Part shown: positions 31,686 to 62,506 of the stretch, one piece after another
How positions within the stretch are numbered: the stretch's first letter is position 1
How the letters are laid out: each line of letters starts with the position of its first letter
Translations under genes and position numbers: made by a program
Notes under the pieces: model-generated
What the model saw: the letters and a program-made list of their open reading frames with translations, nothing else
Told to the model about the DNA's origin: nothing
Databases searched by the model: none
Assembly: GCF_965221945.1 (NCBI RefSeq)
Contig: NZ_OZ244925.1
Span: 3,466,091 to 3,530,090, forward strand
DNA: 64,000 nt
DNA from: Candidatus Poriferisodalis sp.
GTDB taxonomy: Bacteria > Actinomycetota > Acidimicrobiia > Acidimicrobiales > Poriferisodalaceae
Reading direction: 5' to 3'

Positions 31686-31793
31686 CTAGGTGTTAGCTGC
31701 ACAGTTGAACTGAACGGTCGGGTGGCCTGCCCGCCCGATCGGGACAGCCAAGACTGAGAAGGAGCCCCGGGGTTTCGGCCCGGGGCCCCTCGC
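31686..31793 (+). repeat. two-hairpin 3' element, copy 1 (only copy in + orientation)
   Basis: CTAGGTGTTAGCTGCACAGTTGAACTGAACGGTCGGGTGGCCTGCCCGCCCGATCGGG...GGAGCCCCGGGGTTTCGGCCCGGGGCCCC. It is preceded at 31628-31689 by a degenerate S-layer gene tail. Confidence 0.9.
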
Positions 31794-31927
31794 GTACATG
31801 GTCTTCGCTGCCTGTCGCTTCATCTGGCACGTCGAGCTTCTGTTCGCCGTACAGCTTGAACCACGCTTCGCTCGGGGCTTGAACAAAGTAGCTACATGTA
31901 GCTTCATCGGCTGCTACGCTTGTCGTC

Positions 31928-32218
31928 ATGCGGTCAGTCGGCATCAAGGTGCTCAACAGCCGACTCAGCGAGTACGTACGGCTGGCGGCCAGCGGCGAGA
32001 CCATCCTGGTGACCGACCGCGACCGCGTCGTCGCCGAGATGGGGCCGCCGCAGCCGACCCGCAGCCCGCTGGTAGCAGATGCTTTCCTGGCAGATCTCGT
32101 CCGCAGCGGCGTGCTGAGGCCAGGCCTGGTGGCGGCGACAGAGCCTCCGCCTTCGCAGCCGACCGCACCGCTGAGCGAGATCCTCACGGACCTCGACTCG
32201 GCCAGAGCTGACCGGTGA
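31928..32218 (+). CDS. Phd/YefM-type antitoxin
   Basis: VGIKVLNSRLSEYVRLAASGETILVTDRDRVVAEM is a typical Phd/YefM N-terminus. GTGA overlap with the PIN gene. Confidence 0.75.
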   Translation: MRSVGIKVLNSRLSEYVRLAASGETILVTDRDRVVAEMGPPQPTRSPLVADAFLADLVRSGVLRPGLVAATEPPPSQPTAPLSEILTDLDSARADR

Positions 32219-32616
32219 TCTACCTTGACACCTCTGTTGTGCTCGCCCATCTGCTCAGCGAGGACCGTGTGCCGCCCGAATCGCTGTGGGGCCACACGCT
32301 CGTGTCCAGCCGGCTGACCGAGTACGAGACCTGGACCCAGCTGCACGGGCGCGGACTGGCCGAATCCCACGGCGAGGCCGCTCGGGCGCTGCTGGGCCGG
32401 CTGGGACTCGTCGAGCTCGTGCCTGCGGTGCTCGCACGAGCGCTGGAGGCATTCCCGGGTCCGTCGAGCGTGCCCACGCTCGACGCCTTGCACCTGGCAA
32501 CATGCGAGTTCTTGCGCGACGCAGGCCAAACCGTGGAACTCGCCAGCTACGACCGCCGAATGAACGACACAGCCAGCGCCATGGGCGTCCCCCTCTTCCC
32601 CGACGCCGACGGCTGA
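32215..32616 (+). CDS. vapC: VapC-type PIN-domain toxin
   Basis: MIYLDTSVVLAHL..., SRLTEYE, LDALHLATCEF, ASYDRRM give the four acidic PIN positions. Confidence 0.8.
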   Translation: MIYLDTSVVLAHLLSEDRVPPESLWGHTLVSSRLTEYETWTQLHGRGLAESHGEAARALLGRLGLVELVPAVLARALEAFPGPSSVPTLDALHLATCEFLRDAGQTVELASYDRRMNDTASAMGVPLFPDADG

Positions 32617-33199
32617 CACGCCGCGGCGCGGTTCAGCAGCTCGAATCCGCCGAGCTCGATCTCGGCCCCGGGGCCACAACAGCGCCCAAGACAGCGCCAC
32701 GTCGGTGTGAGCCATCCCCGCCGGCGCTGCCACCCCAAGAACATGGCACGCACGTTGGTCCTTGCCGGCTGGGGACGGTCCTTGCGTTCGGTTGCACGCG
32801 GGAGGGCTGTAAACGATCGGTGGAATTTCGAGATTTGTATGCGAACGGTGACAAGCCGGTCGACTGCGCCCATGGCGGCTCGGGCAGCGTTGGCAGTGCG
32901 CTCGGCAGGGTCCTGGCCAGCGTGATCGCAGCGAGGACTGGCGCAGCTTCGCCCGCGACATCGGCGTGGACGCCCGCTGGGCCGCCGAACAGATACAGCG
33001 CATCGCAGCAAACACCCCCGCTTGCCTACAAGCCGAGATCGACGCGCTGTCCACCGACGACAGGTCCAGTGGCATCACCACCCGCCTGCTGGTAGCGATC
33101 ACTCAACGCTGCGACTCCATCACCGCCTGAACGGCCGAACACACGCCCGACCGCGGCAAAAGTCAGCGCCGCCCGCCTCGATCTGTAACGCGACTTCGG

Positions 33200-34890: not shown

Positions 34891-35057
34891 GGTCAAAATG
34901 CTACGAGACCGCTGTCCAGGCCGCGCTTTGCGAACCCCATCGGCACCGAGCACAACGGTGGTTGAGAGAGTCAGCCAGCGGTTCAGTGCTTGTGTCGGCG
35001 TTCCTAGCTGATGGGCTTCAACTTCCACAGGGTCAAGTGCCAACAGCGACGATGGCA

Positions 35058-35170
35058 GAGACGCGAGGAGCCCCGGGGCCGAAACCCCGGGGCTCCTTCT
35101 CAGTTCTGGCTGACCCGATCGGGCGGGCAGGCCACCCGACCGTTCAGTTCAACTCTGCAGCTAGCTCCTA
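35058..35170 (-). repeat. two-hairpin 3' element, copy 2
   Basis: GGAGCCCCGGGGCCGAAACCCCGGGGCTCC (35067-35096) plus CGATCGGGCGG/CCACCCGACCG (35116-35142) plus CAGTTCAACTC. It abuts the stop codon at 35168-35170. Confidence 0.9.
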
Positions 35171-36470
35171 CTGGGGAGCCTTCACGCTGCTGCTGCGCCC
35201 GATACGGACCTGCGAGCGAGTGTTCATGCTCTCATCAACCTTGATGGTTGTGGTCGCGTCGTCTGCGTAGCCAAGGGCGACCGGCGCAACTGCCGCACGA
35301 GCGTCAGTCTCGACCTCCGTCGTGTTCGGGTCGTCGGTGACTTCCGAAGCGCCCGCCGCTGTGGTCACGAGGTCACGCAACGCCGGCAGCATGATCGCCG
35401 AACTCGTCGTCGCCTCATAGCGGACAGTCGTCCCAGGGTCCGAGAACACATAGTTGTTGTCGGCACTCTCGTCCGTGTCCGCCGTACTCGGGTTATCGGG
35501 CGAGTTATCCAGCACTGCCAAATTGAGACCAGCTCGCACCTCGTCGGTCAGGCCATGGTCCGGGGACGCGGCGTCAGATGCTTGAGCGTCGACGACTCCA
35601 GCCTCCCCGGCGCGTTCAGCCGTTGCAGCCAGAATGTCTTCGAGCAGCGCAATGTTCTCGCTGCCACTCAAGCCGGTGGCTTCGATGTAGGCGTTAAACG
35701 TCACCTGGATCGCAACCTTGGTCTCGCCGCCAGCCAACGCACTGATCGACCAGGTATCCACCTCGAATTCCGTGGGCGTGATTGTGCCGTCGTTGTTGGC
35801 ATCGGCCATGCCGCCGCCACGCTCAAGAGTCGCTATATCCAGCTCCTTCTTGGTCGCAGCCGAACCGCACTTGCCAACGTTGCCGCCGGTGATGGTGTCA
35901 GGGTCAGTGTCGACCTTCACCTCGAACATCGCCGCGAAAGCGCTGTTGGCCTCAAGTTCAGCCGCCAGATCGCCGAATGTGGCCTTGCCGTTGATGAACC
36001 GCACGAACACGGTCCTGTCACGGCTGTTGACCCGAACATCGATGTCGAGGTCCTTCTCGGCGTCGTAGCTGCTGGTCTTGTCGAACACGACCGACCACAG
36101 GTTGCCGACTGCACCAGCAGCGGCACCGTCAGCCTTGGCAGCGATCCAGATGTCCGGAGCGTCGATCGAGCTGTCCTCGGTAGTGGTTGCATCGCCGTCG
36201 TCGGGCGCTGTGCCAGCACCATCAGTCAGGCTGTGAGGCACCGCAGCCACAGCTTGCTTGCTGTGGTTCAGGTTGCTCATCAGCACCGATGTGATGCGCG
36301 GGCTCGCCTGCGCCTTGATGGCCGTGAACGAGCGCTGCAGGTTCTTGTTCTTGTTCGGGGATGTGTCCACGATCGCACCAGCAGCAATGGTCACACGGTC
36401 ACCAGGAGCCAGATCGGCCTTTGTGCCGGTGGCGACGCCGTTCGCATCGGTGGTCTGGAAGCCCAGGCTC
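35168..36470 (-). pseudogene. promoterless 3' portion (~430 codons, frame intact) of a CWB2 S-layer-family gene
   Basis: Near-identical blocks to gene 44496-47489 (DRVTIAAGAIVDTSPN.NKNLQRSFTAIKAQASPRITSVLMS; DLDIDVRVNSRDRTVFVRFINGKATFGDLAAELEANSAF) alternate with divergent blocks. It ends SQVRIGRSSSVKAPQ. The 5' side is joined to a hepT fragment. Confidence 0.75.
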
Positions 36471-37268: not shown

Positions 37269-37342
37269 AGCGGCGGCGAGGACGCGATCGGAAACCCACG
37301 CGATTCACAACCTGAAGCGAATCCGCTTGTCCCCGGGGTCGG

Positions 37343-37879
37343 TCAGCTGCGACCGGAGCGCACCATGAGGTCGAGGGTGCGCTGGATCTGGGCCATGCGG
37401 CGGGCCTCGTCTGTAGCGCCGAGGTCGGTGAGCAGCATCTGCATCTCGCGGACGTCTTGGCTGGCTTGGGTGGCATCGATCGTGTCGAAGTGGGCCCAGC
37501 GGTTGCGTGCATCACGCAGATGCTCGAGCGTCGGTTGAGTCGTCACCGTGAAGACCTTTTCGAAGGTCGCCGCTTCCTCTCGCCTCAGGAGCACTTGGAG
37601 GTACACGTAGGGGTCGTGCAGCGGAACACGTTCCGCGGAAGCAAAGATCCCGTGCTTCTGGCGCAGCTCGTGGTGCCAGTCGCCGCCGTAGTGGAGTTCG
37701 TAGACGGCCTGCATTCGCGGCATCATCCCGCTCCCGAGCAGCTCAAGCGCCTTCCCGACGAGATCTCGGGCGCTGTCGATGGGCGATGTTGGCCAGAAGG
37801 CGACAATGGTGTCCCGCATCGAGACAGGAACCCGCTTGCCGGCTTGGCCGATCCAGGCCTCCTCGACGTAGTTCGGCAC
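37343..37879 (-). pseudogene. 5'-truncated exact duplicate of the Swt1-like HEPN gene
   Basis: 37331-37898 is identical by eye to 43380-43947. It retains the HEPN half (LRDARNRWAH) and could still be translated from GTG 37879. Confidence 0.6.
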
Positions 37880-37896
37880 ATTCGCCGCTCTTGACG

Positions 37897-38178
37897 ACGC
37901 CCGCCAACGAACCGCCCGGGTTCGTGCCGAGGCTGCGCTGGCAGACCCTGCTGAAGCTGCTGCGCACCAACGGGCTCGAGTGCACCGTCCACGGATTCCG
38001 CTCGTCGTTCAAGACGTGGGTCATCGAGACCACCTCCACGCCATGGGCCGTCGGCGAGGCGGCTCTGGCCCACGTCGTGGCAACACCACCGAGGCCGCCT
38101 ACGTCCGCATCGACCTGTTCGAGCATCGCTGAGAGCTCATGGCCGCCTGGACCGACTTCATTGCACCGAGACGCCGAT
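37897..38178 (+). pseudogene. P4-type tyrosine integrase remnant (C-terminal ~75 codons, frameshifted)
   Basis: ECTVHGFRSSFKTWVIETTSTPWAVGEAALAH..., then shifted ...AAYVRIDLFE. Homologous to 63240-63477. Confidence 0.6.
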
Positions 38179-38341
38179 GAACTCGTGCGCAGAAACAACA
38201 CGAGGGCCCTCGCAGGCGTCTCAATGGAGACGCCATCAGAATGACCGCACCCTAACTGGCACCGCTCCAGCCGTCAACGCGGGGTCACAGAGTGGGCGCC
38301 TGAGCTCGGCAAGGTCAATACGATGCCGGCGCACATTCCTC

Positions 38342-39207: not shown

Positions 39208-39662
39208 AACTCCCCAACCGGGGAGCCATCAAACCAGCGCGACCCTAGCTGCATGGTTTCATGAGTCGAACTGATATTGCAGTGCTCGCCTTGAATACGC
39301 TGCGGTGCGTCAATCTCCGGCAGCAGTTCGGCATCATGCGGGAAGCCACCACAGCACATTGATGAGAACGCATCGCTGAGTTGCTCTCAGAGTTCATCCG
39401 AACACCTGGAGAGATCGGCGTCGTCGACTCTCAGGAGAATCTTGTGGCTGAAGCAGAGCGCTCCCGTCTCTGCGATCGGCTGTGTAAGCAGACCGACGAG
39501 CCGCTGGTGGAGTACCTCATCTCGTGCTTGAGCCCGGTGCCGCTACCCGAACTGGAACGCCTAGCGGCTTTGGGGAAACCCGTGCCCGGGCCAGCTTCAA
39601 GAAGCCGCACAGCCCCGCGGTCCCGCTCTGTCAGCTGAGTGTCGGCGCGCTCGTTGCGCGGT

Positions 39663-40034
39663 TCAGGTGAACAGGTCGGTGAGCCGGCTCAGCCAGCCCG
39701 CCTCGACGGCTGCGACCTCCACAGCGATGAACACAGCCGCTGCGGTCACCCAGCTGCGGTCCGCCTTGCGCTGCCGGGCGGCGTGCGCACGGTCGGCCTC
39801 GCGCTGGGCAGCCAGCTTGTCGAAGCCGGCTTGCATCTCTTCTTTGGCGGCAAAACGCGACAACTCAGCCGACAGCACTGCGGAGAGATGTTCCTTGGTC
39901 ACCAAGTCCGACAGCGGCGCGGGCGCCAAGCACGACATCAGGTACTCCGCCAACGGCTCGTCGGTCTGTTTACGCAGCCAAGCGTAGAGGCGGGACCGGT
40001 CTCTTGAGACAAGGCTGACTCCTGTTTCCGTCAA
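39663..40034 (-). CDS. small coiled-coil protein with C-terminal TM helix (hypothetical)
   Basis: TTG 40034. LYAWLRKQTDEPLAEYLMSCLAP..., charged coiled-coil, then WVTAAAVFIAVEVAAV. Its 5' third is duplicated in inverted orientation at 39455-39545. Confidence 0.35.
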   Translation of the reverse strand: MTETGVSLVSRDRSRLYAWLRKQTDEPLAEYLMSCLAPAPLSDLVTKEHLSAVLSAELSRFAAKEEMQAGFDKLAAQREADRAHAARQRKADRSWVTAAAVFIAVEVAAVEAGWLSRLTDLFT

Positions 40035-40037
40035 GAT

Positions 40038-49595: not shown

Positions 49596-49600
49596 TCTCA

Positions 49601-51221: not shown

Positions 51222-54200
51222 GCTCTCCACTCCAGGTGCCGCGACTGAACTCGACTCGAAGATCCGCACCTGCGACGAAGCGTTGAGCTTCTCGTCCCGG
51301 CCGATAGCCGAATCAGCCTCAGCGGTGCCTGCCGCAGGCGATGGCGTGTCGGGATCGTCGATGAAGCCGGTCGCCACATCAACTACCCCGGCTGTCGCCA
51401 CCTCAGTCCTGTCGGTGTCGGGATCGTCCTTGAAGATCTGATCCTTGCCTCCAGCAGTGGTGACGACATCGCGTTCGTTGGGCAGCTGATCCACATCCGT
51501 CACCCACAGCCCATACCGCAACTGCGTCGTCGGCGTCGCAACGACGGGAGTAGACCCACCCGTGTCGGCGCCGCCACCGCTAGTCGTGAGCATCGTGCCG
51601 GTGACTTCCTCATAGGCAGTACGAGCTGCTGCCAACTCGGTAGCACTGGATGCACCGTCGTCGTCGGCGTCGAGGCTGACGTTGGTCCGATCGAGCGTTG
51701 CCGCGAACACATCGAAGAACAGGGCCGTCTCGTGGATCATGTCGACATAGCCGTTGAAGTTCGTCTCGATGCCTACCGTTGACCGACCTGTCACTTCGCC
51801 GTCCACGCGAGCCGACGTGACTACGTCTGCGGAGAAGTCGTCAACCTCACGGTCAACTTGGTGCTCGACCTGCCTGGTCAGATCAACGATCGACATCTTG
51901 TTGTTGACGCTCTTGCCGCATGGCTTGCTGGCGGTCACCTCAGTGGTGTTATTGAACGCCTCGAACATGCTGCTGAAGCCGCTGTGGTCGTTCAGTGCGG
52001 CGACGAAATCGTCGTAGTAGACGGTGCCGTCGTTGATCCGCGCGCTTACGACCTTGTCGCGGCTGTTGACTCGCACGTCGATGTCGATCTCGTTGTCCTT
52101 GTCCCAGGTGCTGGCCTTGTCGACGACGAAGCTCCAGTCGTTGCCGGCCGCGCCCGCCGCCGCGCCCTCGGGCAGCGCCGTGATCCACAGGTTCGAGCCT
52201 GCACCGGCAACCTCGTCCTTGATCTTGACTTCCATGTGACGGACGTGATGGACGTTGCTCATCCGCACCGAAGTGATCCTCGGATTCACGGGCGGCAGCA
52301 CTGCGGTTACCGAAACCGAACGGTTGCGGTTGCCCGCAGCGTCTTCGAACACGGCGTTCTTGACAGTGATGCGGTCCCGCCGCTCCAAGAGCATCTGCTC
52401 GCTGTCTTCATTTTCGCCGAGCAGCGCGGTGAAGCCAGTACTGATACTGCCCTCGATGCTCGCGATCTCGTTGTCGCCGCTGGCGTCGAGCACGATGTCG
52501 ATGATGGACTTGTCGTCGTCGCTGTCCGCGAACTCGAACATCCTGTTGCCTTTGCCGTCACGGGTGTTTTGCACGAAGTGACTTGGGTAGTAGTTCAGGT
52601 AGGCCGGGTCCGGCCTGTCGCTGACGTGCACCCTGAATCCCGGCTGTCCGACGAGCGCTTCGATGCTCACTGCGGGCCGTGTCGTGTCCGCCTCAGCCTG
52701 AACTGTCTCCGACGTCGGCACAACAGTCCGCTGATCCTCGGAATCACCGAGCTTGATGTTGGACGCAACGATGGAAACGGTGTCGCCGACCTTCAGCGAC
52801 GCACCCGCGAGCAATGTCACCTCGATCACGTCCAAAGCGCACCGGTCATCGCCGCCGCCCGCATGCCGGATCGGCTTGTGAGGCGTGGCGAAACCCGTCA
52901 CGTCGACATCGAGTTGGCCCAGTCGTGCCGGCACGCCGTTGATCTCGAGCAGGTCTCGGATCTTGGTCTCGACGTCATTCGTCGCGATGTCGTCGCTGAA
53001 GTGCAGCCAGAACTGCTGCCCCGGATCATCGGGAGCGACCTTTGCGGGGTTGCGCGCCGACAGCGGGTGCACCTCACTTTCGGAGCCGCTGATCTGGACT
53101 GTCAACTGGTCATCGGACTCAGCGATAGCCGTCGCGGCGTCCATCACGCTGTCACTCACCGCTGCGGTGCCGCCGATGGCGACAATGCTCAGGTTGATCT
53201 TGTTGCCGTTTTCGTACTCCGAAGGAGTGGTTGCAAGGTAATCCCGCACCGACGCTGGCAGCGTGTCTCCGACGACCAGGATCGGGACTAGGTCGCCGCT
53301 GTTGGCATACGTGCTCGACAGCACCGGCGCAGCGGTGATGCCGTCAGGCAGTGCGTCTCGGTGCACCAGCGCAACGGTGTCCTCGGATACCGGAGCGAGG
53401 TCGTCGCTGCAGTCGCCGGTCATCAGCTCAGCGAGGGCAACAGAGGTGGCCGCCGGAGTGTCGCCGGCAATGCGCGTCACTATGTCGACACCGCTGTCAG
53501 TGAGCGCTGCCTCGACGTCTTCGGAGACGCTGCCGGTGCCGCCCACGATCACGACCTGCTCGACATCCTCGGATTCGATGAAGTCTGTCGTGGCTGTCGG
53601 CATTTCGTCGGCTGCGGTCATCAGCACCGGCAGCTGCAGTCGGTGAGCGATCGGGCCGGCAATGACGGCATTGATCAACTCTTCGCTCTCGCCGCTCACC
53701 AGCAGCGCCGCGACCTCGTCGCCGCCGCACCAAGAAGCCGAACCTCCCAGCTGCGAGGCGATCGCAGCGGCGGTGGCATACCGGTCGGCGCCCTCGATGC
53801 GAGACACGTCGGGCTCGTTGGCAAGAGCCTCCATGTCCTCAAGGACCGAGTCGGCGACAGCTGCGCTGCCGCCCAGGACGTGGATTCTCTCCACGCCGTA
53901 GTCCTCGATGAAGTCGGCTACGCCGCCGTGCAGGCTGTCGGCCGGTGTCAACAGCACGGGGGCGTCCATGAAGCTCGCAAGGCCCGACACCGAAACGGCA
54001 TCGACCAGCGAGGAGCCCGAAGCGACGAATGCGGTCGAGATGCCGCCCAGGCCGCCGCGGCCCGTCGCGAAATTCTCTGCGAGGCGAAGTGCTGTGTCGT
54101 AACGATCACGGCCGCCGAACTCACGCACCATCGGCGTATCGGCGTCGTCGTCGTGATCTACGAGCGCTTCGCTAGATGTGTTTGCGGCTTGTGCAGGAGA

Positions 54201-54293
54201 GCCCGCCACGACCGCAAGCACCGATGCCATGAGCATCGCCGCCAGGATCGCCGCCAGGGAACGCCTGCCCCGCCGCTTATGAGTAGTGTTCAA
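51219..54293 (-). CDS. secreted cell-wall-binding (CWB2 x3) S-layer-type protein B
   Basis: TTG start. Signal peptide identical to protein A from RRGRRSLAAIL. Three CWB2 repeats. Divergent central and C-terminal regions. Ends SQVRIFESSSVAAPGVES. Confidence 0.85.
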   Translation of the reverse strand: MNTTHKRRGRRSLAAILAAMLMASVLAVVAGSPAQAANTSSEALVDHDDDADTPMVREFGGRDRYDTALRLAENFATGRGGLGGISTAFVASGSSLVDAVSVSGLASFMDAPVLLTPADSLHGGVADFIEDYGVERIHVLGGSAAVADSVLEDMEALANEPDVSRIEGADRYATAAAIASQLGGSASWCGGDEVAALLVSGESEELINAVIAGPIAHRLQLPVLMTAADEMPTATTDFIESEDVEQVVIVGGTGSVSEDVEAALTDSGVDIVTRIAGDTPAATSVALAELMTGDCSDDLAPVSEDTVALVHRDALPDGITAAPVLSSTYANSGDLVPILVVGDTLPASVRDYLATTPSEYENGNKINLSIVAIGGTAAVSDSVMDAATAIAESDDQLTVQISGSESEVHPLSARNPAKVAPDDPGQQFWLHFSDDIATNDVETKIRDLLEINGVPARLGQLDVDVTGFATPHKPIRHAGGGDDRCALDVIEVTLLAGASLKVGDTVSIVASNIKLGDSEDQRTVVPTSETVQAEADTTRPAVSIEALVGQPGFRVHVSDRPDPAYLNYYPSHFVQNTRDGKGNRMFEFADSDDDKSIIDIVLDASGDNEIASIEGSISTGFTALLGENEDSEQMLLERRDRITVKNAVFEDAAGNRNRSVSVTAVLPPVNPRITSVRMSNVHHVRHMEVKIKDEVAGAGSNLWITALPEGAAAGAAGNDWSFVVDKASTWDKDNEIDIDVRVNSRDKVVSARINDGTVYYDDFVAALNDHSGFSSMFEAFNNTTEVTASKPCGKSVNNKMSIVDLTRQVEHQVDREVDDFSADVVTSARVDGEVTGRSTVGIETNFNGYVDMIHETALFFDVFAATLDRTNVSLDADDDGASSATELAAARTAYEEVTGTMLTTSGGGADTGGSTPVVATPTTQLRYGLWVTDVDQLPNERDVVTTAGGKDQIFKDDPDTDRTEVATAGVVDVATGFIDDPDTPSPAAGTAEADSAIGRDEKLNASSQVRIFESSSVAAPGVES

Positions 54294-56119: not shown

Positions 56120-56560
56120 TTACGTATTCTGCCAGCGACGGCCGACGTTCCCCGCCGGATCGGGGCTCAGCAGGTCCTGCGGGCTGATGGCGGGGATCGG
56201 CGATCGCTCGTAGTCCCTCAGGTTCCGTGTGACGATGCATCGGGCGCCGCACGCACGAGCGGCTGCCACCTGCAGAGCGTCCTCGAAGTCGTCCATCGGG
56301 AGCCCGGCGGCGTACCGAACCGAATCGGTGTCTGTAGTGGCGACGCTGACGAACGCAACGAGCTCAGTCACGAAGTCGCGCGTCCGGATATCTCCCTGCA
56401 CGGGCGCGACGAGGTAGTACAGGTTCGATACCGAATGCCACGCGATGGCGGCCCGTTCGAAGCCCAGCTCGATCCGCTCGAGCACCTCGACTGCGGCCGC
56501 CGCGTGCGGATCGCGGTCGAGAGCGACATCGATGAGCACATCGGTGTCCAGCAGGATCAT
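56120..56560 (-). CDS. vapC: VapC-type PIN-domain toxin
   Basis: MILLDTDVLIDVAL..., DFEDALQVAAA, IVTRNLRDY. Confidence 0.8.
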   Translation of the reverse strand: MILLDTDVLIDVALDRDPHAAAAVEVLERIELGFERAAIAWHSVSNLYYLVAPVQGDIRTRDFVTELVAFVSVATTDTDSVRYAAGLPMDDFEDALQVAAARACGARCIVTRNLRDYERSPIPAISPQDLLSPDPAGNVGRRWQNT

Positions 56561-56781
56561 CGAAGGTACTTGCCGGCCAAAGCCGCATATCGGGCATCAT
56601 CCCGCTCCGCTGGACTGAACCGGCCACGCCAACGCGACGCAAACGACGGCTCGCCTTCGTCAATGACCTCGCGCAAGGACATCTCGATCAGCGACGACAA
56701 CGACACGCCCTGCGCACGCGCGTGGCGCTTCGCCGCGGGAACGAGGTTCGAATCGACAGTGATGGTGAGCTTCTGCTTCAT
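56557..56781 (-). CDS. small antitoxin (DUF6364/RHH-like) of the PIN toxin
   Basis: MKQKLTITVDSNLVPAAKRHARAQGVSLSSLIEMSLRE. 4-nt overlap with vapC. Confidence 0.6.
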   Translation of the reverse strand: MKQKLTITVDSNLVPAAKRHARAQGVSLSSLIEMSLREVIDEGEPSFASRWRGRFSPAERDDARYAALAGKYLR

Positions 56782-56935
56782 TGCTGACCGCGCCTTGCCT
56801 GGATGTCGGCACAGCATATACGGCATCGTTGACTACGTACACGTATATCGCTCCTCGGCACATGATGCCGTGGCTTGCGCTGGAGTAGGTAACCGCCGTG
56901 CAGCGGACGTGGGATTGCAGCCCACAAGTGAGCAC

Positions 56936-57047
56936 AGACGCGAGGAGCCCCGGGGCCGAAACCCCGGGGCTCCCTCTCAGTTTTGGCTGTCCCGATCGGG
57001 CGGGCAGGCCACCCGACCGTTCAGTTCAACTGTGCAGCTAGCTCCTA
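56936..57047 (-). repeat. two-hairpin 3' element, copy 8
   Basis: Same subtype as copy 2. GGAGCCCCGGGGCCGAAACCCCGGGGCTCC (56944-56973). It abuts the stop at 57045-57047. Confidence 0.9.
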
Positions 57048-57495
57048 CTCGGGAGCGTCGACGGCGCTGCTGCGTCCGATGCGGACTTGCGACGCAGCGT
57101 TCTTCTCGTCGTTGTCAGCGACGGGTGCGTAGCCAGTAGCGATCGCCGCAACAGCGGCCGCTTGCTCATCGGTATCCGTATTCGGGTCGTCCGAAACAGC
57201 GTCGGCACCAGCCGCCGTGGTCACGAGGTCACGCACCTGCGGCAGCGCTGCTGCGTTGTTGGTGATCGCCTCGTCGCGCACGGTGGTCTTCGGGCCAACG
57301 AACGTCTCCGGGCTGCCCAAGGTAAGGGCGGTGGTCACCGCAGCGGTGTCAGCCAGGCCGTTGTCACGGTCGACGACGTCCTTGACGATGTCCTCAAGCA
57401 GCCCAGTGTCGGTAACAGTCTGCACGTAGCCGTTGACTTCGGCTGTGTCACGGCCAGCAATCATGATGGCGCTGATCGTCGAACGGGCGGCGGCA
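57045..57495 (-). pseudogene. promoterless, internally deleted 3' fragment of S-layer family
   Basis: STISAIMIAGRDTAEV (compare PTISVIMIAGRSTAEV of protein A) is fused to a variable C-terminal block. Ends SQVRIGRSSAVDAPE. Confidence 0.7.
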
Positions 57496-57595: not shown

Positions 57596-57710
57596 GACCA
57601 ATGCTGAGCAGTTGAGCAGCAACCCGGTTCCCGCTTCGATGCGGGACACGATCGTGGCTTTCTGGCCGACATCGCCTATTGACAGCCCTCGTGATCTGGT
57701 CGGCAAAGCG
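57596..57710 (+). pseudogene. fragment of the Swt1-like HEPN gene, inverted orientation
   Basis: PVPASMRDTIVAFWPTSPIDSPRDLVGKAL, compare PVSMRDTIVAFWPTSPIDSARDLVGKAL. It is cut by the IS1182 end. Confidence 0.65.
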
Positions 57711-57905
57711 CTAGGAGGGTGGTCGGCAATTGGGGTGTGTTGTGCGTGCGCGGTTGTGTGACCGGTGGTGGTGGTCGGGTTGCCCCGGGTTGTGGGTTCG
57801 GGCCGGGGTGAGGCGTATCTGACTCTTCGCGACGGATCGAGTTGGGATTCAGGCCGTATCCGATGGTCGCTGGCGGGTTGTGGTTGGTGAGGGTAGTCGG
57901 CGGGT

Positions 57906-58958
57906 TCATCGCTGGCTCCGGTGCCAGGCTCGGCGTTGTTCGTCGGCGATTCGCATGCCGTGGGTGCGGGCTGCGCGGATGGTGTCGCCGCGGCCGTCGT
58001 GTTCGTCGTTGGGGGTGACGTAGCCGATCGCTTCGTGCAGCCGGACGCTGTTGTGGTGGACCCGGACGCGTTCGAGTTCGGCGGCGAGCACGGCCGGGTC
58101 GGTGATCGTGGTCAGGTGTGGGTGCTCGCGTTTGACGTGGCCCCACAGCGACTCGATCCACGCCTGGTCGGTCGGGGTCGACGGGCGACCGAAGTGTTGG
58201 GCGATCGAGCACAGCGCCATGAACCGGCGGGTCTCGTTGGCGTGCATCTCGGTCCCGTTGTCCGAGACCGCCAGCAGCAACGGCGCCTGGTCGCCGTCGG
58301 GGAGCGCGGTGTCGGGGTCGGTGAGGCGGGCTCGGAGCTCGTCGGTGAGCAGTCCCTCGTTGTCGAGCCCGCGGCTGAACAGGACCCGGGCGGCGACCGA
58401 GTCCGGGTTGGCGGTGAGGCGGGTCGAGATCCACTTGCGGGACACGAGGTCGACAATCGCGTACGCGTGCTTGGCGGCGACGCAGCGTTCGAACTGGGAG
58501 CCGTCCCAGCACCACAGCTGGTTCGGGTGCCACTCACACCAGTGCGGCCACGGCGTCTTCACGGTCCGTGCCGGTCGTGGAGCTCCTTGCAGGGCAAGGC
58601 CGTGACGGGCCAGCACCCGATCGACGGTCGACGGCGACGCCCACACCCGTTGCTCGTAGGAGCCGCGGTGAGCGAGCTTGCGATGCGACCGGTCCACGTC
58701 GCCCCACTCGTCGAACAACGCCAAGATCTCAGCCTCCTCCCACTCCAAGAGCCCGTGGATCGGGTTCCCGCCCGGGCGGGCGTCATCGAGCCCGCCCCCG
58801 GCTCGGCGCTGCTGCCACCGCCACGCCCGACCCCGGTCCAGCTCGACCACCGCGCACGCCCGGTTCAGCGTCCAGCCGGCATCGACCGCATCGTCGATCA
58901 AGGACAGCAACGCCGCCTTGGCGGTCCCATCGACACGGGCGGGAACCGGACCGCTCAT
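57906..58958 (-). CDS. transposase OrfB (rve integrase core, DDE)
   Basis: HPNQLWCWDGSQF, VSDNGTEM, QAWIESLWG give D-D-35-E spacing. ATG 58958 overlaps the OrfA stop (ATGA). Confidence 0.8.
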   Translation of the reverse strand: MSGPVPARVDGTAKAALLSLIDDAVDAGWTLNRACAVVELDRGRAWRWQQRRAGGGLDDARPGGNPIHGLLEWEEAEILALFDEWGDVDRSHRKLAHRGSYEQRVWASPSTVDRVLARHGLALQGAPRPARTVKTPWPHWCEWHPNQLWCWDGSQFERCVAAKHAYAIVDLVSRKWISTRLTANPDSVAARVLFSRGLDNEGLLTDELRARLTDPDTALPDGDQAPLLLAVSDNGTEMHANETRRFMALCSIAQHFGRPSTPTDQAWIESLWGHVKREHPHLTTITDPAVLAAELERVRVHHNSVRLHEAIGYVTPNDEHDGRGDTIRAARTHGMRIADEQRRAWHRSQR

Positions 58959-59302
58959 CCCGGGCGCGATTTTCCCCGCAGCACCGCCAACTCGACGGCC
59001 TGCTCGACCACCGTCGCCTGGAGCCGGTCGACCTCGGCCCCCAACGCCGCGGCCTCCGACGCCTCCTGGCGAGACTGACGCGGCCGGCCCGGCCTCGACG
59101 CCCCCAGCGCCGCGATCGCTCCATCGCGGGCAACCGCTCGCAGCCGGGTGATCACCGACCGATCCACCCCAGCCTCGGCTGCCGCGTCGGCCTGGGAGAT
59201 CTGCCCCGTCAGCATCCCCAGCCACAAGTCGTACTTCTGCTCTGCTGTCAGCATCCGCTTCGGCTTCCGCGGTGTCGATGTCATCGTTGACGGCCTCCAC
59301 AA
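58955..59302 (-). CDS. transposase OrfA (HTH)
   Basis: RMLTAEQKYDLWLGMLTGQISQADAAAEAGVDRSVITRL plus a coiled-coil tail. Confidence 0.7.
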   Translation of the reverse strand: MWRPSTMTSTPRKPKRMLTAEQKYDLWLGMLTGQISQADAAAEAGVDRSVITRLRAVARDGAIAALGASRPGRPRQSRQEASEAAALGAEVDRLQATVVEQAVELAVLRGKSRPG

Positions 59303-59394
59303 TCAAGGCCAGCAACCATCTCAGATGCAGTCTGAAAGAACCAGGATCCCGTCGCGCGAAGTCAGACGCACCACAGGGGGTGGGCGCGGGTGTG

Positions 59395-60969
59395 TTACCC
59401 GATGATGCCCAGGCGGCCGGCTCGGTCGAGGTTGAGGGCGGCGATTCGCAGGTCGAGCCACAGGTTGGCTTTGTCGAGGCCGCGCCAGGGGACGCGTTTG
59501 GTGCGGGACTTGATCTGGGCGATCTTGCGTTCGGCCTGGGATCGCAGTCGGTATCTGGCGAGGAATTCGGGTTCGTGGCGTTGTGCTCTTGCGGGGGCGA
59601 GGAGTTCTTCGTATGGGTTGATCTCGATGATGCGGCCGCCGTCGCGTGTGGTGCATCGGGGCTTGAGCTCGCACGCTGAGCAGTCCGTTGCTGCGAACCG
59701 CGCCTGGCGCCGTTTGTCGCCGTTCGGCGGCGGGATGGGTGCGGTGTTGCCTTGCGGGCAGGTGATCGTGGCGGTTTCGATGTCGATGTCGAAGTCGGCT
59801 TTGGTGAGCATGCCTTCGCGGGCCGGGATCGGCGCGGCGGGCGCGACCAGGTCGATGCCTCGGTCGGCCATCGCCTGACGGGTGAGCCCCGATCCGTAGT
59901 GGGTGTCGGCGATGATCTCGGCGACCGGGACCGGGTCGGCGTCGATGAGGTCACCGATCACCGCGGCGTCGTGGGCGGTCGCGAGCGTCGCGGTCGCTGA
60001 GGTGATCAGGTCCGAGTCCACATCCGCGGACACGTGCAGCTTGTAGCCGTCGTAGCGGTCGGTGCGCGAACGGTGCCCGTGCCGGGCGTCGGGATCGACT
60101 GTGGAGATGACCCGGCCCGGGGCCACCCGCTGAGCTATCCGTGCCGTTTCGACACCGTCACCATCGGCGACCAACTCGATGTCCTGGCCCGCCACGACCC
60201 CCAACAGCTCGACTGCCGCTGCCAGGCCGGGATCGTCGAAACCGGCACAGAACCCCACCACGGTCTCGGCGTCGCCGAACAGCTCCGCGACCAAAGCAGC
60301 CCGCGCGCACGGATCAGCCCACATGATCTGCGGCTTGGCCCCCCGGCCGTAGTCGTCGCGCGACAACAGCCCCACCAACTCCGCTGCGGCATCGGCGTCG
60401 ACCGCTGCCAGCGCCCCGAGGCAGCTGCGGACCCCGCAGCGGATCAAGGTGATCGTGTCCTGGGTCAGCACGCAGTCCGCCACACCGGTCGAGTCCATCG
60501 TGCGACGATGGCCGATCACCCCGGCGCGTCTGGCAGCGATCTTGACCCGATCCCCCAAGAAAGACTCCATCCCGGCGCGCACCAGCCGCGCCCGGAACTC
60601 CACCAGCACCACATGCGCGATCCCGCGATGCTCCAACGGCAAACCCAACGCCGCTTTCCACGACATATCGAACCGCGAACGCCGCTCAGCCTCACGATCG
60701 GACACGCCATAGAACAACTGCAACAACAACAACGCCGCCACCACCGACGGCGGATGCGACGGCCGGCCCCGGCCCGACGCATACAACGCATCAAAATCCG
60801 CGTCGCAGAACAGCTCCCCCCGAGCCTGCCCCAACGACACCAAGAATCCCTCAGAGTCGAGCAGATCGCCCACCATCACCCCGACATCAAAAATCGAACC
60901 CTGACCATCAGCCGAAACACGCACCCCACCATCATCCGCGATCACAACCCCCAACACGAGGACCCACAC
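59395..60969 (-). CDS. IS1182-family transposase (DUF772 + DDE_Tnp_1_6)
   Basis: GRPSHPPSVVAALLLLQLFYGVSDREAERRSRFDMSWKAALGL is a typical N-terminus. The DDE region is present (ISTVDPDARHG, ADTHYG). Confidence 0.8.
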   Translation of the reverse strand: MWVLVLGVVIADDGGVRVSADGQGSIFDVGVMVGDLLDSEGFLVSLGQARGELFCDADFDALYASGRGRPSHPPSVVAALLLLQLFYGVSDREAERRSRFDMSWKAALGLPLEHRGIAHVVLVEFRARLVRAGMESFLGDRVKIAARRAGVIGHRRTMDSTGVADCVLTQDTITLIRCGVRSCLGALAAVDADAAAELVGLLSRDDYGRGAKPQIMWADPCARAALVAELFGDAETVVGFCAGFDDPGLAAAVELLGVVAGQDIELVADGDGVETARIAQRVAPGRVISTVDPDARHGHRSRTDRYDGYKLHVSADVDSDLITSATATLATAHDAAVIGDLIDADPVPVAEIIADTHYGSGLTRQAMADRGIDLVAPAAPIPAREGMLTKADFDIDIETATITCPQGNTAPIPPPNGDKRRQARFAATDCSACELKPRCTTRDGGRIIEINPYEELLAPARAQRHEPEFLARYRLRSQAERKIAQIKSRTKRVPWRGLDKANLWLDLRIAALNLDRAGRLGIIG

Positions 60970-61013: not shown

Positions 61014-61698
61014 TTGATGGGAAGACGCCGGCACCCCAGACGTGACGGTCTCAGGCGACGCGTCGGCACCCGGGAGCCAAAGCGCACGTTCCTCGTATTG
61101 TGTGAGGGCGAGAAGACAGAGCCGGGTTACCTAGCGGCCCTGCGAAGACTCCCAGATGTCAAGGATGTCGCAGAAGTCGAAATCCGGGTGGACACATCTC
61201 ACGCCGGAGATGCGCCGCTGACCCTCGTTCAGGCCGCGATCGATCTCAAGAACCGCAACGACGAGATTGACGAAGTGTGGTGTCTGTATCGACGTCGAGG
61301 CCCCGGACCCTCACCCGAATCTAGTTCAAGCACGGGCTCTGGCGCAGACGAACAACGTGCGCGTTGCAATCTCAAACCCTTGCTTCGAAATCTGGCTTGT
61401 TATGCACTTCAAGCCCCATACGAGGTGGCTGAGCACGGCCGAAGCCGTCCGGCGTCGTCGCGAATGCGATGGCAGCACCGGGAAAGAAGTCGACGGAACT
61501 CTCTACATGGCAGACCGATGGGTGGCGGCAGCGCATGCTCGTCGTCTGCGAGACAAGCATGTCGACGAGGCAACTCTATTTCCTGACGACAACCCGTCTT
61601 CGGGCATGTTCGAGCTATTGGAAGCCATCGAGCAGCGCAGCGCCACCCATAGCGCTTCCTCGATGCCCGGCAGGACGGGAAGTTCGATGGGTCCTTGA
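61014..61698 (+). pseudogene. RloB-like (AbiLii-type) gene with a +1 frameshift near 61284-61288
   Basis: Frame 1 reads RTFLVLCEGEKTEPGYL...DEIDEVWCL. Frame 2 reads IDVEAPDPHPNL...ISNPCFEIWLVMHF. Together these give the RloB pattern. Confidence 0.6.
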
Positions 61699-61717
61699 CC
61701 GAGGACGTTGCGGTCGT

Positions 61718-62383
61718 TCACGCTCTGGCCAGCAGCTCACGCGCAGCGCGCTGCGAGCGTTCGTCTTCTGACTCCAACAGGTCGACTGCGACGACCGGGG
61801 CGGGTGCGACTCGCTGGCCGGCCTCGAAAGGCCAGTCATCGTCGTTGACCACCCGCAGGCGGACATTGGGCCTGTCTGAATCCGCATCAAGAGCGAAGCG
61901 ATCGGCCAGTTCGGCGACTCGTGATTCCGGCACATATGCCTCGGACTGGTCGCTGACCACGAGGTCGACGTGGTGGTCGCTCACAGCGCTGACCCCGCTC
62001 GCGACCAAGCTGGGGTGCGAGAGCATCTCTGAGCGAACGCCTGGATGGGCATAGAACCATCGGCTCTGGGCTCGGCTCGACAGGCGTTTGGCGAGTGGTT
62101 CGAGCCCGATCTGCAGCCGCTTCTTGGCCCGTGACCGGTCGACTGGCGATCCTCGCACAGCGTCCCGGTTGGCCAGCGCCAACACGTTCCAGGCTGACGA
62201 TGGGCTCCACGGTCGGCCGGACTCGGGCCGAGCGCGTGCAAATCGCTGGATCTCAGCACGGTCAAGCACCCATGATCGTCCGATGCGGTGACCGCCCAGC
62301 TGACCTGCGGCCACCATCTGGTGGACGCGACGAGGACTGACCCCCAACTGTGCCGCAGTTTCGGCTACGCCCACAGGTTCCAT
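61718..62383 (-). CDS. excisionase/MerR-type HTH protein with uncharacterised C-terminal domain
   Basis: VAETAAQLGVSPRRVHQMVAAGQLGGHRIGRSWVLDRAEIQRF (HTH_17-like). Confidence 0.5.
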   Translation of the reverse strand: MEPVGVAETAAQLGVSPRRVHQMVAAGQLGGHRIGRSWVLDRAEIQRFARARPESGRPWSPSSAWNVLALANRDAVRGSPVDRSRAKKRLQIGLEPLAKRLSSRAQSRWFYAHPGVRSEMLSHPSLVASGVSAVSDHHVDLVVSDQSEAYVPESRVAELADRFALDADSDRPNVRLRVVNDDDWPFEAGQRVAPAPVVAVDLLESEDERSQRAARELLARA

Positions 62384-62450
62384 ATCATAAATATACGTAT
62401 ATCAGCAGTGTTTTGCAATCAGGGCTTGTCAGCCCTCGAACTCAGTAACG

Positions 62451-62506
62451 CAAGAAGCCCCGGGGCTCCTCGTTGTTGGTCTTTGCCGACCCGGTGGGCA
62501 GGCCAC
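62451..62506 (-). repeat. 3' element copy 9, collapsed hairpin 2 and truncated hairpin 1
   Basis: GAAGCCCCGGGGCTCCTCGTTGTTGGTCTTTGCCGACCCGGTGGGCAGGCCAC, then unrelated sequence. Confidence 0.8.

Follow-up and report, generated by a model that had tools for sequence, protein, structure and literature searches.

A two-hairpin element at the 3' ends of S-layer-like genes in Candidatus Poriferisodalis and its possible role as a downstream homology block

The window analyzed here is a 64,000-nucleotide stretch of the genome of Candidatus Poriferisodalis sp., and its relevant features are listed in Table 1. It contains two full-length S-layer-like genes with similar 5' leaders, and relatives have several full-length genes; the host of this S-layer subfamily is a Candidatus Poriferisodalis-type member of the Acidimicrobiia, a sponge symbiont. 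Residues 76-392 of SL1 match the CWB2 triads of SlpA, Cwp6, and Cwp8 of C. difficile. The limits given for this gene are those of the listed open reading frame (ORF), which begins at a TTG; translation probably starts farther downstream. The 5'-truncated paralogue at 35168-36441 stands in a mosaic relationship to SL1. An integrase gene or its fragments adjoin S-layer genes at many loci. Both copies in the window are degenerate fragments of the P4 type, and intact forms were found at the related loci L012 (7423-8622, between divergent S-layer genes) and L003 (an ORF of 421 aa). NYN, HEPN, and AlkB-like proteins recur in these islands.

Table 1. S-layer-like genes, the AlkB-like gene, and element copies in the window
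Feature	Position	Strand	Description
SL1	44496-47549	-	Full-length S-layer-like gene; signal peptide, three CWB2 repeats, variable C-terminal half; PF04122, 3.3e-34
SL2	51219-54293	-	Second full-length CWB2 S-layer-like gene; PF04122, 1e-36
S-layer paralogue fragment	35168-36441	-	5'-truncated; corresponds to SL1 aa ~610-1017; frame open; carries c2 at its 3' end
AlkB-like 2OG-Fe(II) oxygenase gene	40173-40655	-	PF13532, 4.7e-22; profile matched to its C-terminal end
c1	31687-31797	+	Full, subtype A; orphan, inverted relative to the other copies
c2	35057-35170	-	Full, subtype A; directly 3' of the TAG stop of the 5'-truncated S-layer fragment
c3	40032-40139	-	Full, subtype B; fused downstream of the AlkB-like gene
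c4	42885-42925	-	5' part of the element only; ends within the hairpin-1 loop
c5	44388-44498	-	Full, subtype B; after the TAG stop of SL1
c6	49556-49593	-	Hairpin 2 plus tail only
c7	51110-51221	-	Full, subtype B; after the TAG stop of SL2
c8	56934-57047	-	Full, subtype A; follows the TAG stop of an S-layer 3' fragment of ~390 nt (57045-57436)
c9	62451-62507	-	Partial, subtype B; begins in the hairpin-1 5' arm

An earlier note on this DNA had described nine copies of a two-hairpin element of about 110 nt, in two sequence subtypes. All of them are present: nhmmer and a covariance model retrieved exactly these nine copies in the window (six full and three partial, c1 to c9) and none within positions 1-31,600, and the division into subtypes A and B was recovered as well. 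The 11-mer CAGTTGAACTG, with at most one mismatch, occurs at seven sites (10 strand matches vs 0.71 expected), and the hairpin-2 pattern occurs five times vs zero expected. The full element is made up of a stop codon and a 3' untranslated stretch of ~110 nt with two GC-rich hairpins. The palindrome, previously placed at the stop codon itself, actually begins 12 nt past it, in the arrangement TAG-GAGCTAGCTGCA-CAGTTGAACTG, and the 3' edge is sharp, directly past hairpin 2 plus TCGCGTC. Proteins of the element-bearing subfamily end in ...SQVRIGRSSSVKAP*, and in every intact gene of this subfamily the element lies directly past the stop codon. The element is the discrete, conserved, and structured unit tied to S-layer paralogues that had been proposed.

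S-layer coding sequence or its relics lie 5' of every copy, with unrelated sequence on the 3' side. Upstream of c1 there are ~45 nt of degenerate S-layer 3' coding sequence. Copy c3 had been described as following an unrelated AlkB-like gene while keeping an S-layer-type stop context. It does adjoin this gene, but the AlkB-like ORF has its own stop codon at 40173-40175, 34 nt upstream of the element TAG (40137-40139), and this TAG is a relic of S-layer coding sequence (GGCTCCGTCCCAGTAG). A relic of ~20 nt, GCGTCAAGGCTCCCGAATAG, is also kept in the orthologue of c3 at L008:3136-3256. Copy c4 belongs to a duplicate (42885-43121) that is 98% identical to the AlkB 3' end plus c3. Copy c6 is joined directly to an S-layer coding fragment (49596-50019), itself without its last ~190 nt, and hairpin 2 of c9 has collapsed to the single palindrome GGAGCCCCGGGGCTTC, as has that at L013:7898-8005; the breakpoints of the partial copies are spread along the element. 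The counterpart of c8 in the relative NZ_OZ240249 has the same 3' end and downstream flank on an intact 919-aa gene (L003, 3101-5860). Because the AlkB-associated and orphan copies keep 16-45 nt of S-layer coding sequence, they represent fusion joints and not clean insertions. The element appears to be non-autonomous and to travel with gene fragments, and the AlkB-associated copy, the orphan c1, and the partial copies c4, c6, and c9 are best viewed as relics moved with 3' gene fragments during rearrangement of the island.

The predicted folding energy of the element is -57 to -64 kcal/mol; when full copies were compared with dinucleotide shuffles, none of 200 shuffles folded as well (z = -3.7 and -3.0). 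Hairpin 1 is conserved in structure, forming in 32 of 34 copies from differing sequences with some covariation (for example, pair 57-77 is UA in 13, CG in 11, and UG in 8), and has no consistent strand bias, with 34 G.U vs 23 A.C cells in a strand-neutral count. In distant copies, the fold of the antisense strand is more stable than that of the sense strand. Hairpin 2, with 12-13 perfect pairs and a loop of 4-6 nt, forms in all copies except the collapsed variants and is conserved by sequence, not by covariation: its arms are invariant even where the proteins are only ~35% identical, while hairpin 1 drifts. Its 6-nt spacers are variable (TTTCGG, TTTGCG, TCTCGG, CACCCG, and CATCGG), its sense strand has 27 G.U vs 6 A.C cells, and its basal pair forms a G-C / G-U / A-U series. 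The hairpin-1 counts, the antisense folding of distant copies, and the sequence conservation of hairpin 2 speak against the earlier proposal that the structure is selected specifically at the RNA level. The A-U to G-C swap cited between c5 and c7 is absent, the changes being A-U to G.U, and the restriction of G-U pairs to the transcript strand holds for subtype A but not in general. As for termination, hairpin 2 is a GC-rich stem-loop of the canonical kind, but the U-tract 3' of the stem is missing from eight of the nine copies, as had been noted for all of them; c5 alone, with the tail TTGCATTTCC, passes the rule of at least five T in eight, and the other copies have TCGCGTCT.

When 185,579 species genomes were scanned for the strict core of the element, two genomes of Candidatus Poriferisodalis were the only ones to match, and all matches lay in S-layer/defence islands; a complete 4.39-Mb chromosome contains the strict core three times, each time at an S-layer gene. 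These genome-wide counts rest on the strict core pattern, with the covariance model applied to the window and related loci. All 37 full copies found in the window and 14 related loci are located at S-layer 3' ends or carry relics thereof; among these copies, the distribution is confined to S-layer islands. Full-length as well as partial genes carry the element on their 3' side (c2, c5, c7, and c8 in the window; L015; L010, L012, L013, L016, and L017), and CWB2 paralogues with other C-termini in the same tandem array at L010 carry none. A looser pattern found no match in JGI metagenomes and viral contigs. No Rfam 15 family matched at gathering thresholds when the whole window was searched, and a permissive search around c5 returned only sub-threshold chance matches (best 21.7 bits vs a gathering score of 42).

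In the S-layer genes, the first 1.2 kb are conserved and the 3' half is hypervariable; at the end comes a conserved block formed by the final ~45-70 nt of coding sequence plus the element (80-96% identity vs ~60% in the flanks). Across paralogue pairs, including SL1 vs SL2, identity is <0.5 upstream, 0.70-0.93 over nt 1-1200, 0.35-0.8 over nt 1200-2950, 0.80-0.85 over the last ~70 nt plus the element, and about 0.3 downstream. Within the window, the element reaches 0.82-0.96 vs 0.60-0.66 for adjacent coding sequence and 0.59-0.63 downstream. No other sequence on the 3' side of the variable region is conserved. At L012, the element arms are 95% complementary vs 71-88% in the gene bodies. The truncated copies are 3'-anchored: the 5' 1.1 kb is missing, and they hence have no leader or signal peptide. 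In the relative L015, seven copies lie on one strand, each behind a 5'-truncated S-layer fragment (70-610 aa), and this series adjoins a full-length-type CWB2 gene. Copies in such arrays are on a single strand, with toxin-antitoxin (TA)/defence genes between them.

Exchange between truncated and full-length copies has left traces. At aa 631-675, the fragment carrying c2 is identical to SL1 at all fourfold sites (15/15, 17/17, and 16/16), and at aa 736-825 the fourfold sites are ~97% identical, vs 5/13, 6/15, and 2/11 in neighboring saturated blocks. Judging from these blocks of zero synonymous divergence beside saturated ones, gene conversion has occurred between the truncated copy and the full-length gene. 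The conversion tracts are internal and stop short of the element, and the elements of c2 and SL1 belong to different subtypes (82% identical). In the orthologous c2-type fragments of two close strains, including L018, a segment of ~400 nt is replaced. L018 is missing the stretch from the 5' region of SL2 to that of SL1 and also the interval between the HEPN repeats; close strains differ by such deletions between repeated modules and by a replaced segment. The orphan c1 forms the right edge of a 14.6-kb segment missing from close relatives, with homology to L018 resuming at 31803, ~5 nt past the c1 tail, and that to L005 at 31833. The element is found at rearrangement joints, as had been suspected. 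The resolved junctions are 5 and 34 nt away from c1 on its downstream side and ~70 nt past a c8-type copy, and none of them maps a crossover inside the element.

The element is the conserved 3'-terminal block of one CWB2-anchored S-layer-like subfamily. We consider that it probably acts as a downstream homology block similar to the downstream homology sequence (DHS) of Borrelia hermsii and probably also forms the mRNA 3' end, a reading that we hold with moderate confidence. The recombination by which the surface genes are reshuffled most likely has its downstream limit at the element. The last ~45 nt of coding sequence and the element would together constitute the downstream homology sequence, with exchange between full-length genes and 5'-truncated archival copies, by homologous recombination or gene conversion, starting or resolving there. 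The hairpins would serve as recombinogenic inverted repeats, as in the B. hermsii DHS, and on expressed genes they would probably also generate or shield the 3' end of the mRNA. The element itself may be the crossover or initiation site, and transcripts may end at hairpin 2. Among the roles offered in the earlier note, the recombination joint resembling the Neisseria Sma/Cla repeat is the best backed, by the conserved 3' block, the 3'-anchored truncated copies, the conversion tracts, and the strain rearrangements. The positions of the junctions and of the c2/SL1 tracts outside the element count against a DHS-like role. In addition, at least two full-length genes with conserved leaders coexist, which speaks against a single expression site, and since the c8 fragment of the window corresponds to an intact gene in a relative, some truncated copies are recent debris rather than cassettes under maintenance. 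Selection against expressed anchor-only proteins could also explain why 3' fragments are in excess, and an RNA 3'-end function alone could account for the conservation of the element.

In B. hermsii, the DHS is an extragenic repeat of 214 bp whose 31-bp inverted repeat is required for switching (PMC6011951). The element resembles it as an extragenic repeat of 100-200 nt located 3' of expressed and archived variable surface-protein genes, with an inverted repeat able to form a stem-loop, and with a conserved 5' homology region as its counterpart on the other side of the variable part. Archived and full-length copies have exchanged sequence here, as seen in the c2/SL1 blocks and in the segment replaced in close strains. 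The two repeats are, however, unrelated in sequence and come from Actinomycetota and Spirochaetota, respectively. The element has two hairpins and abuts the stop codon, whereas the DHS lies at variable distance; at least two full-length genes are present instead of one telomeric expression site; and the archived copies, complete in B. hermsii, are 5'-truncated here, where the function is inferred only. The sap locus of Campylobacter fetus is a cluster of about eight S-layer homologues with conserved 5' regions and variable remainders that undergoes recombinational rearrangement (PMC4943207). Its invertible promoter segment is brought to mind by L012 and L003, where divergent S-layer genes flank a central segment, but the sap homologues are full-length with one shared promoter moved by inversion, their anchoring is via LPS binding and not CWB2, and a structured 110-nt element and truncated-copy arrays are not part of the sap description. 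A short conserved stretch may also follow the stop codon in sap. In Neisseria, the short conserved Sma/Cla repeat lies 3' of the expressed pilE and the silent 5'-truncated pilS copies and is implicated in their recombination. The shared feature is a short conserved repeat at the 3' end of full-length and 5'-truncated surface-protein genes; sequence and organism differ, and the likeness is one of analogy only. Variation of pilin depends, in addition, on a G4-forming sequence and an sRNA upstream of pilE, no counterpart of which was found at the element loci.

A less probable but quite possible explanation is that the element works purely as RNA, forming the 3' UTR of an S-layer mRNA with high expression. 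Hairpin 2 would be an 'I-shaped' terminator without a U-tract and/or a block to 3' exonucleases, hairpin 1 an accessory stabilizer, and the fragment copies undecayed neutral debris, with recombination merely resulting from a repeat-rich island. The constant position behind the stop codon of intact subfamily genes, the very stable fold, the structural conservation of hairpin 1, the G.U excess and basal-pair series on the sense strand of hairpin 2, and the sharp 3' edge are all consistent with it. U-tract-less intrinsic terminators have been proposed for Actinobacteria, although their activity is disputed, and the element shares with them a GC-rich perfect hairpin just past the stop codon with no U-run following. 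However, such terminators are generic, variable hairpins, whereas the stem sequence here is invariant across distant relatives, which is unexpected for a simple terminator stem, and the element has a second hairpin and conserved unpaired motifs and is found in one gene subfamily only. The lack of a U-tract in eight of the nine copies, the absence of a consistent strand bias in hairpin 1, and the near-intact elements behind promoterless L015 fragments down to 70 aa also argue against a role in RNA alone. Neither are strong hairpins the usual gene ends in the window: among its 11 perfect stems of at least 9 bp, four are hairpin 2, and only one lies in the first 31 kb.

Hairpin 2 could instead be a site-specific recombination site of dif/lox-like geometry for the P4-type tyrosine integrase beside the S-layer genes, with the units between elements exchanged as cassettes, which we regard as unlikely. 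Its invariant 12-bp inverted arms around a variable 6-nt spacer fit such a site, as do the integrase genes or fragments at many loci and the one-strand arrays with TA/defence genes in between. On the other hand, the genome junctions fall outside the spacer, the copies keep hairpin 1 and S-layer relics on their 5' side, which simple exchange at hairpin 2 would not produce, the partial-copy breakpoints are scattered, and the integrases of the window are degenerate. Another option of the earlier note, a miniature mobile element, taken here as MITE- or REP-like and inserting after stop codons, is very improbable: many sharp-edged, hairpin-bearing copies exist, one of them behind the AlkB-like gene, and metagenome assemblies break within the element, but there are no terminal inverted repeats or target-site duplications, no copy was seen outside S-layer islands in the strict-core genome scan or with the window models, and no RAYT or transposase is specifically associated, the nearby IS elements being from unrelated families.

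Two further candidates were rejected. Integron attC sites and Vibrio VCRs are likewise dyad repeats of ~60-130 nt behind ORFs, in one orientation and in arrays holding toxin-antitoxin genes, and GTTGAAC in the element fits the core-site consensus GTTRRRY; however, the element has no inverse core site at its other end and two independent hairpins instead of one R''/R'-closed stem, S-layer sequence accompanies all copies, the units do not consist of single promoterless ORFs, and no IntI is present, only P4-type integrase fragments. As for the target of a diversity-generating retroelement (VR/IMH plus hairpin), no reverse transcriptase was found among the scanned island ORFs, and the paralogues differ by indels and all substitution types.

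Returning to the DHS-like downstream homology block, S-layer variation may even be programmed or adaptive. In this more tentative extension, which we consider rather doubtful at present, arrays of 5'-truncated cassettes would donate to a few expressed CWB2 genes, and the element would be a dedicated cis switch signal, with hairpin 1 recombinogenic and the 12-6-12 palindrome of hairpin 2 a putative site at which a specific protein binds or cuts. Candidates for this protein are the adjoining tyrosine integrase and the NYN, HEPN, or AlkB-like proteins of the islands. If true, it would be the first case of cassette-type surface variation for Actinomycetota and for a non-pathogenic symbiont, with recognition by phages or the host as the presumed driving force.

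To our knowledge, almost all known cases of cassette-type variation of surface proteins with guiding flanking repeats come from pathogens such as Borrelia, Neisseria, Anaplasma, and Campylobacter fetus. In the window, this architecture surrounds S-layer-like genes of an uncultured sponge symbiont from another phylum, in a defence/toxin-antitoxin island. The repeated element explains why short-read assemblies break at S-layer loci. If the system is active, the element would provide, through its covariance model, a precise sequence handle with which to locate loci of this kind and to follow switch events in long-read metagenomes, and varying the surface would be a general response to pressure from phages or hosts where symbionts live in dense communities.

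All nine copies of the two-hairpin element described in the earlier note (c1 to c9, c1 being inverted) proved to be real. The 11-mer CAGTTGAACTG occurs with at most one mismatch at seven sites in the window versus 0.71 matches expected, the hairpin-2 pattern occurs five times versus none expected, and a profile HMM and a covariance model recovered exactly c1 to c9, with no copy in positions 1-31,600 of the window. Six copies (c1, c2, c3, c5, c7, and c8) are full length, while c4 comprises the 5' part alone, up to the hairpin-1 loop, c6 comprises hairpin 2 and the tail alone, and c9, in which hairpin 2 is collapsed, begins within hairpin 1. Alignment of 18, and then 34-37, copies including their flanks gave the following order on the gene strand: a stop codon, nearly always TAG; GAGYTAGCTGCA, CAGTTGAACTG, and AAC; hairpin 1, with 11-14 bp and the loop CCTGC; a CA-rich spacer; hairpin 2, i.e. 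GGAGCCCCGGGG-N6-CCCCGGGGCTCC; and a TCGCGTC tail, directly past which the similarity between copies ends sharply. This order places the start of the palindrome 12 nt past the stop codon and not at it, where the earlier note had put it. The two sequence subtypes are borne out by the spacer, which comes as form A (ACAGCCAAAACTGAGAA) or form B (AAAGACCAACAACGA), and hairpin 2 indeed lacks a U-tract, a T-rich tail being present in c5 only. A four-gamete comparison, made to look for crossovers within the element, revealed hairpin 1 of type B combined with the type A spacer (in the related loci L009 and L016), and the reciprocal combination was absent. The Rfam check proposed in the earlier note was run and gave zero family matches for the element, and the window contains no tRNA genes.

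Two individual variants were also observed. The collapse of hairpin 2 (GGAGCCCCGGGGCTCT), common to c9 and a copy in L013, arose in two lineages, and its likely cause is a deletion between two direct CCCCGGGG repeats within the stem. The hairpin-1 5' arm in a copy of L009 has the sequence GCTGGTGG, which is the E. coli Chi octamer; other copies have GNTGGTGG-like arms (GTTGGTGG in c7). Since Chi is not known for Acidimicrobiia, this match may be coincidence.

The genes before c5 and c7 (SL1 and SL2, respectively) have products of ~1,020 aa, each containing three CWB2 repeats (PF04122) besides a signal peptide, and the stretch of residues 76-392 corresponds to the CWB2 triads found in SlpA, Cwp6, and Cwp8 of C. 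difficile. Fragments of S-layer genes truncated at the 5' end precede c2, c6, and c8; the fragment before c8 corresponds to the 3' end of a gene that is intact in NZ_OZ240249 (919 aa). c1 retains ~45 nt of degenerate S-layer coding sequence. From the position of c3 behind an unrelated AlkB-like gene (PF13532), it had been argued that the element either moves or is used as a recombination joint. That gene ends 34 nt upstream of c3, and the interval is a 16-20-nt relic of an S-layer coding end (clearer in the orthologue of locus L008), which marks a fusion joint and not a clean insertion. Every related contig retrieved has the element at S-layer 3' ends. In L010, where at least seven CWB2 genes stand in tandem, it is present only on the two with the C-terminus ...RSS.VEAPK (stop).

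The window is DNA from a relative of Candidatus Poriferisodalis, a sponge-associated group of Acidimicrobiia, and among 185,579 species representatives the strict core pattern matched two genomes of this group only. The protein family is small as well, with 19 members among 5.8 billion proteins. A looser core pattern had zero matches in JGI metagenomes and viral contigs, BLAST found nothing in plasmids and only short chance matches in phages, and an exact look-up of SL2 in public assemblies gave no match. The CoA-transferase look-up retrieved two Logan contigs only, both terminating within c1, which is a break point of short-read assemblies.

Further observations concern the neighbors of these S-layer genes. 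Distant relatives (L017, L004, and L008) likewise have, in their S-layer islands, an AlkB-like 2OG-Fe(II) oxygenase gene fused to a relic element, the protein of L017 sharing 79% aa identity with that of the window, and NYN and HEPN RNase-type genes are also recurrent there. The possibility of an IS inside the element in L011 was ruled out: an IS630-family insertion is located at the stop-codon CTAG, with the element intact beyond.

Comparison of paralogue pairs demonstrates an uneven distribution of identity, which is <0.5 upstream, 0.70-0.93 in the first ~1.2 kb, 0.35-0.8 in the 3' half, 0.80-0.85 in the last ~70 nt plus the element, and about 0.3 downstream. Between copies within the window, the element shows 0.82-0.96 identity and the adjoining coding sequence 0.60-0.66, barely over unrelated downstream DNA (0.59-0.63). 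In L012, where two divergent S-layer genes constitute a large inverted repeat, the element arms are best conserved (95% versus 71-88%). The most telling locus is L015, which contains seven element copies on one strand within 17 kb. Directly before each copy lies a 5'-truncated S-layer fragment, each of a different length (range about 70 to 610 aa); the copies are separated by small genes of TA-like or defence type, and a full-length-type CWB2 gene adjoins the array end. The pattern of truncated fragments with the element is repeated in L013 and L017. We conclude that the element is a conserved 3' block of an S-layer subfamily, passively carried with 3' gene fragments. The excess of 3' fragments could alternatively result from selection against expressed anchor-only proteins.

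The earlier note had also considered the element as a recombination joint. Segmental conversion between the c2 fragment and SL1 and rearrangements between strains favor this claim, precise junctions at hairpin 2 were not found in the genome comparisons, and the element as a guiding site is putative. At fourfold-degenerate sites, the c2 fragment and SL1 are identical (15/15, 17/17, and 16/16) at SL1 aa 631-675 and about 97% identical at aa 736-825, and the stretches beside the identical blocks are saturated (5/13 and 6/15; later 2/11 to 5/13), even where the aa identity remains 0.77-0.93. Judged from the sequences, identical blocks beside saturated ones are the pattern that recent segmental gene conversion leaves behind. 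The window and the close strain L018 have orthologous c2-type fragments, which are 93-100% identical in their flanks, with ~400 nt wholly different. Moreover, the L018 island is far more compact, missing the sequence that separates the conserved 5' region of SL2 from that of SL1, the 5.4 kb between two 98%-identical HEPN repeats, and the 14.6-kb segment ending at c1. Absence of the 5.4 kb is as expected from recombination between the HEPN repeats. Homology with the window restarts about 5 nt past the c1 tail in L018 and 34 nt past c1 in L005, another close relative. Clustering of partial-copy breakpoints in hairpin 1 was not significant (4 of about 10, hairpin 1 being 26% of the element). In addition, the VapC module downstream of c8 is missing from L018, with a junction ~70 nt 3' of the element, and hence TA/defence modules seem to be accepted immediately behind the element.

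Coordinates and properties of features in the window and in related loci
Locus	Positions	Feature	Observation
Window	10944-17059	Three tandem paralogous genes	~60-63% nt identity
Window	17185-31802	14.6-kb segment	G+C 0.55-0.60 versus 0.65-0.69; c1 = right edge; ABC transporter, three luciferase-like monooxygenases, enoyl-CoA hydratase, CoA-transferase; missing in both close relatives (L005, L018)
Window	24698-27243	Paralogous luciferase-like genes	
Window	37305-37898, 43351-43947	HEPN_Swt1 segment, duplicated	98% identity; the 5.4 kb between copies holds NYN, AlkB-like gene with c3, DUF3226/AAA_21 pair, c4
Window	57619-57712, 62726-62940	HEPN_Swt1 fragments	
Window	37786-38244, 62880-63869	Integrase	Degenerate fragments only
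Window	39432-40024	~590 nt aligning with own reverse complement	59%; both strands carry overlapping ORFs; adjoins c3 on its downstream side
Window	40173-40655, 42926-43121	AlkB-like gene with relic element	
Window	56189-56863	VapC (PIN_3) module	
Window	57906-60969	Two IS elements	Adjoin split RloB-like gene
Window	61014-61698	RloB-like gene	Frameshift giving two ORFs (Pfam profile positions 1-72, 74-195)
Window	62451-62507	c9	
L003	1778-5974	Divergent S-layer genes with integrase	Intact 421-aa integrase ORF (1778-3043)
L009	2179-2301	Copy with GCTGGTGG	
L010	5096-9958	Three tandem DDE_Tnp_1 IS copies	Directly upstream of 5'-truncated S-layer copy, within CWB2 array
L011	11300-12470	IS630-family element	DDE_3 transposase; TIRs TGGTGTGTCG / CGACACACCA; splits S-layer gene from element
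L012	4368-11929	Divergent S-layer genes with integrase	Integrase intact (7423-8622)
L013	7898-8005	Copy with collapsed hairpin 2	
L017	1758-2384	AlkB-like gene with relic element	

The folding energy of full copies is -57 to -64 kcal/mol (z -3.0 to -3.7 versus dinucleotide shuffles). Of 34 copies, 32 form hairpin 1 despite clearly differing sequences, and L010 has a perfect 14-bp variant of it. In the model-based alignment, 89.8% of cells are paired, versus 34-60% with partners slid, and six pairs are altered on both sides. The best of these are pair 57-77 (UA 13, CG 11, UG 8) and, in hairpin 2, the basal pair (GC 23, GU 9, AU 4). The covariation score is 0.122 versus 0.106 in shuffles, with 5 of 500 shuffles reaching it; as the alignment was fitted to the model, covariation supports the structure moderately. 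The view that G-U pairs show selection on the RNA strand does not hold generally, the strand test being inconsistent across lineages: a strand-neutral count in hairpin 1 gave 34 G.U versus 23 A.C cells, with a lean to G.U in the close group and to A.C in the distant one, and the mean folding energies are -17.3 (sense) and -16.6 kcal/mol (antisense). The exchange between c5 and c7, previously given as A-U to G-C, is A-U to G.U.

Even at a protein identity of ~35%, the arms of hairpin 2 stay essentially invariant, and its 6-nt loop is variable, which speaks for a constraint on the sequence as such and not on pairing alone, arising from either protein recognition or a need for maximal stability. 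Strong hairpins are not a usual gene-end feature in the window, since four of the 11 perfect stems of ≥9 bp in 64 kb are hairpin 2 and one is in the first 31 kb. An extended stem, in which the 5' motif CAGUUGAACUG is pairable with the spacer in both subtypes, has a mean z of only -1.1; it shows a U-A / U-G / C-G series in subtype A and L016, and cross-type pairings score alike (-5.5 versus -5.85). Stop-codon read-through or a small ORF was rejected: the in-frame TGA past the stop is not kept in distant copies, and any frame on the opposite strand is broken by subtype indels.

A purely RNA role as terminator or stabiliser is plausible, if less probable than the reading given below; it leaves unexplained the invariant hairpin-2 arms, the missing U-tract, and the retention of the element behind promoterless fragments. 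It is improbable that hairpin 2 is a site-specific recombination site: its 12-6-12 geometry and an integrase recurrently neighboring S-layer genes are in favor, but the resolved junctions are outside the hairpin-2 spacer and the integrase copies in the window are fragments. A P4-type tyrosine integrase is located between divergent S-layer genes forming a large inverted repeat in L012 and L003, and also in L006 and L009, and may vary the S-layer further, by inversion or in a shufflon-like manner. The miniature mobile element offered in the earlier note, i.e. a MITE or REP-like element, is very hard to credit, as terminal inverted repeats, target duplication, and clean insertion are absent at every copy, and DGR, retroelement, and integron readings were rejected for want of their defining features.

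The closest known system is the downstream homology sequence of Borrelia hermsii, an extragenic repeat of 214 bp that lies downstream of both the expressed and the silent vmp genes, in which a 31-bp inverted repeat is needed for switching (PMC6011951). The Neisseria Sma/Cla repeat and the C. fetus sap family (PMC4943207) are further analogues, and the element has no sequence relationship to any of these. Our literature search found no paper on Poriferisodalis or on sponge Acidimicrobiia S-layers.

Most probably, the last coding codons and the element constitute a putative downstream homology sequence. The conserved 5' 1.2 kb and this downstream block would bracket the variable region and would make replacement or conversion possible between a full-length gene and a truncated archival copy, a process in which the inverted repeats may serve as recombinogenic structures. 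Where the gene is expressed, these hairpins probably also form the 3' end of the transcript or protect it; the two roles are compatible and not mutually exclusive. The kind of system is already known, the phylum and lifestyle in which it occurs here are new, and the function proposed for the element is inferred.
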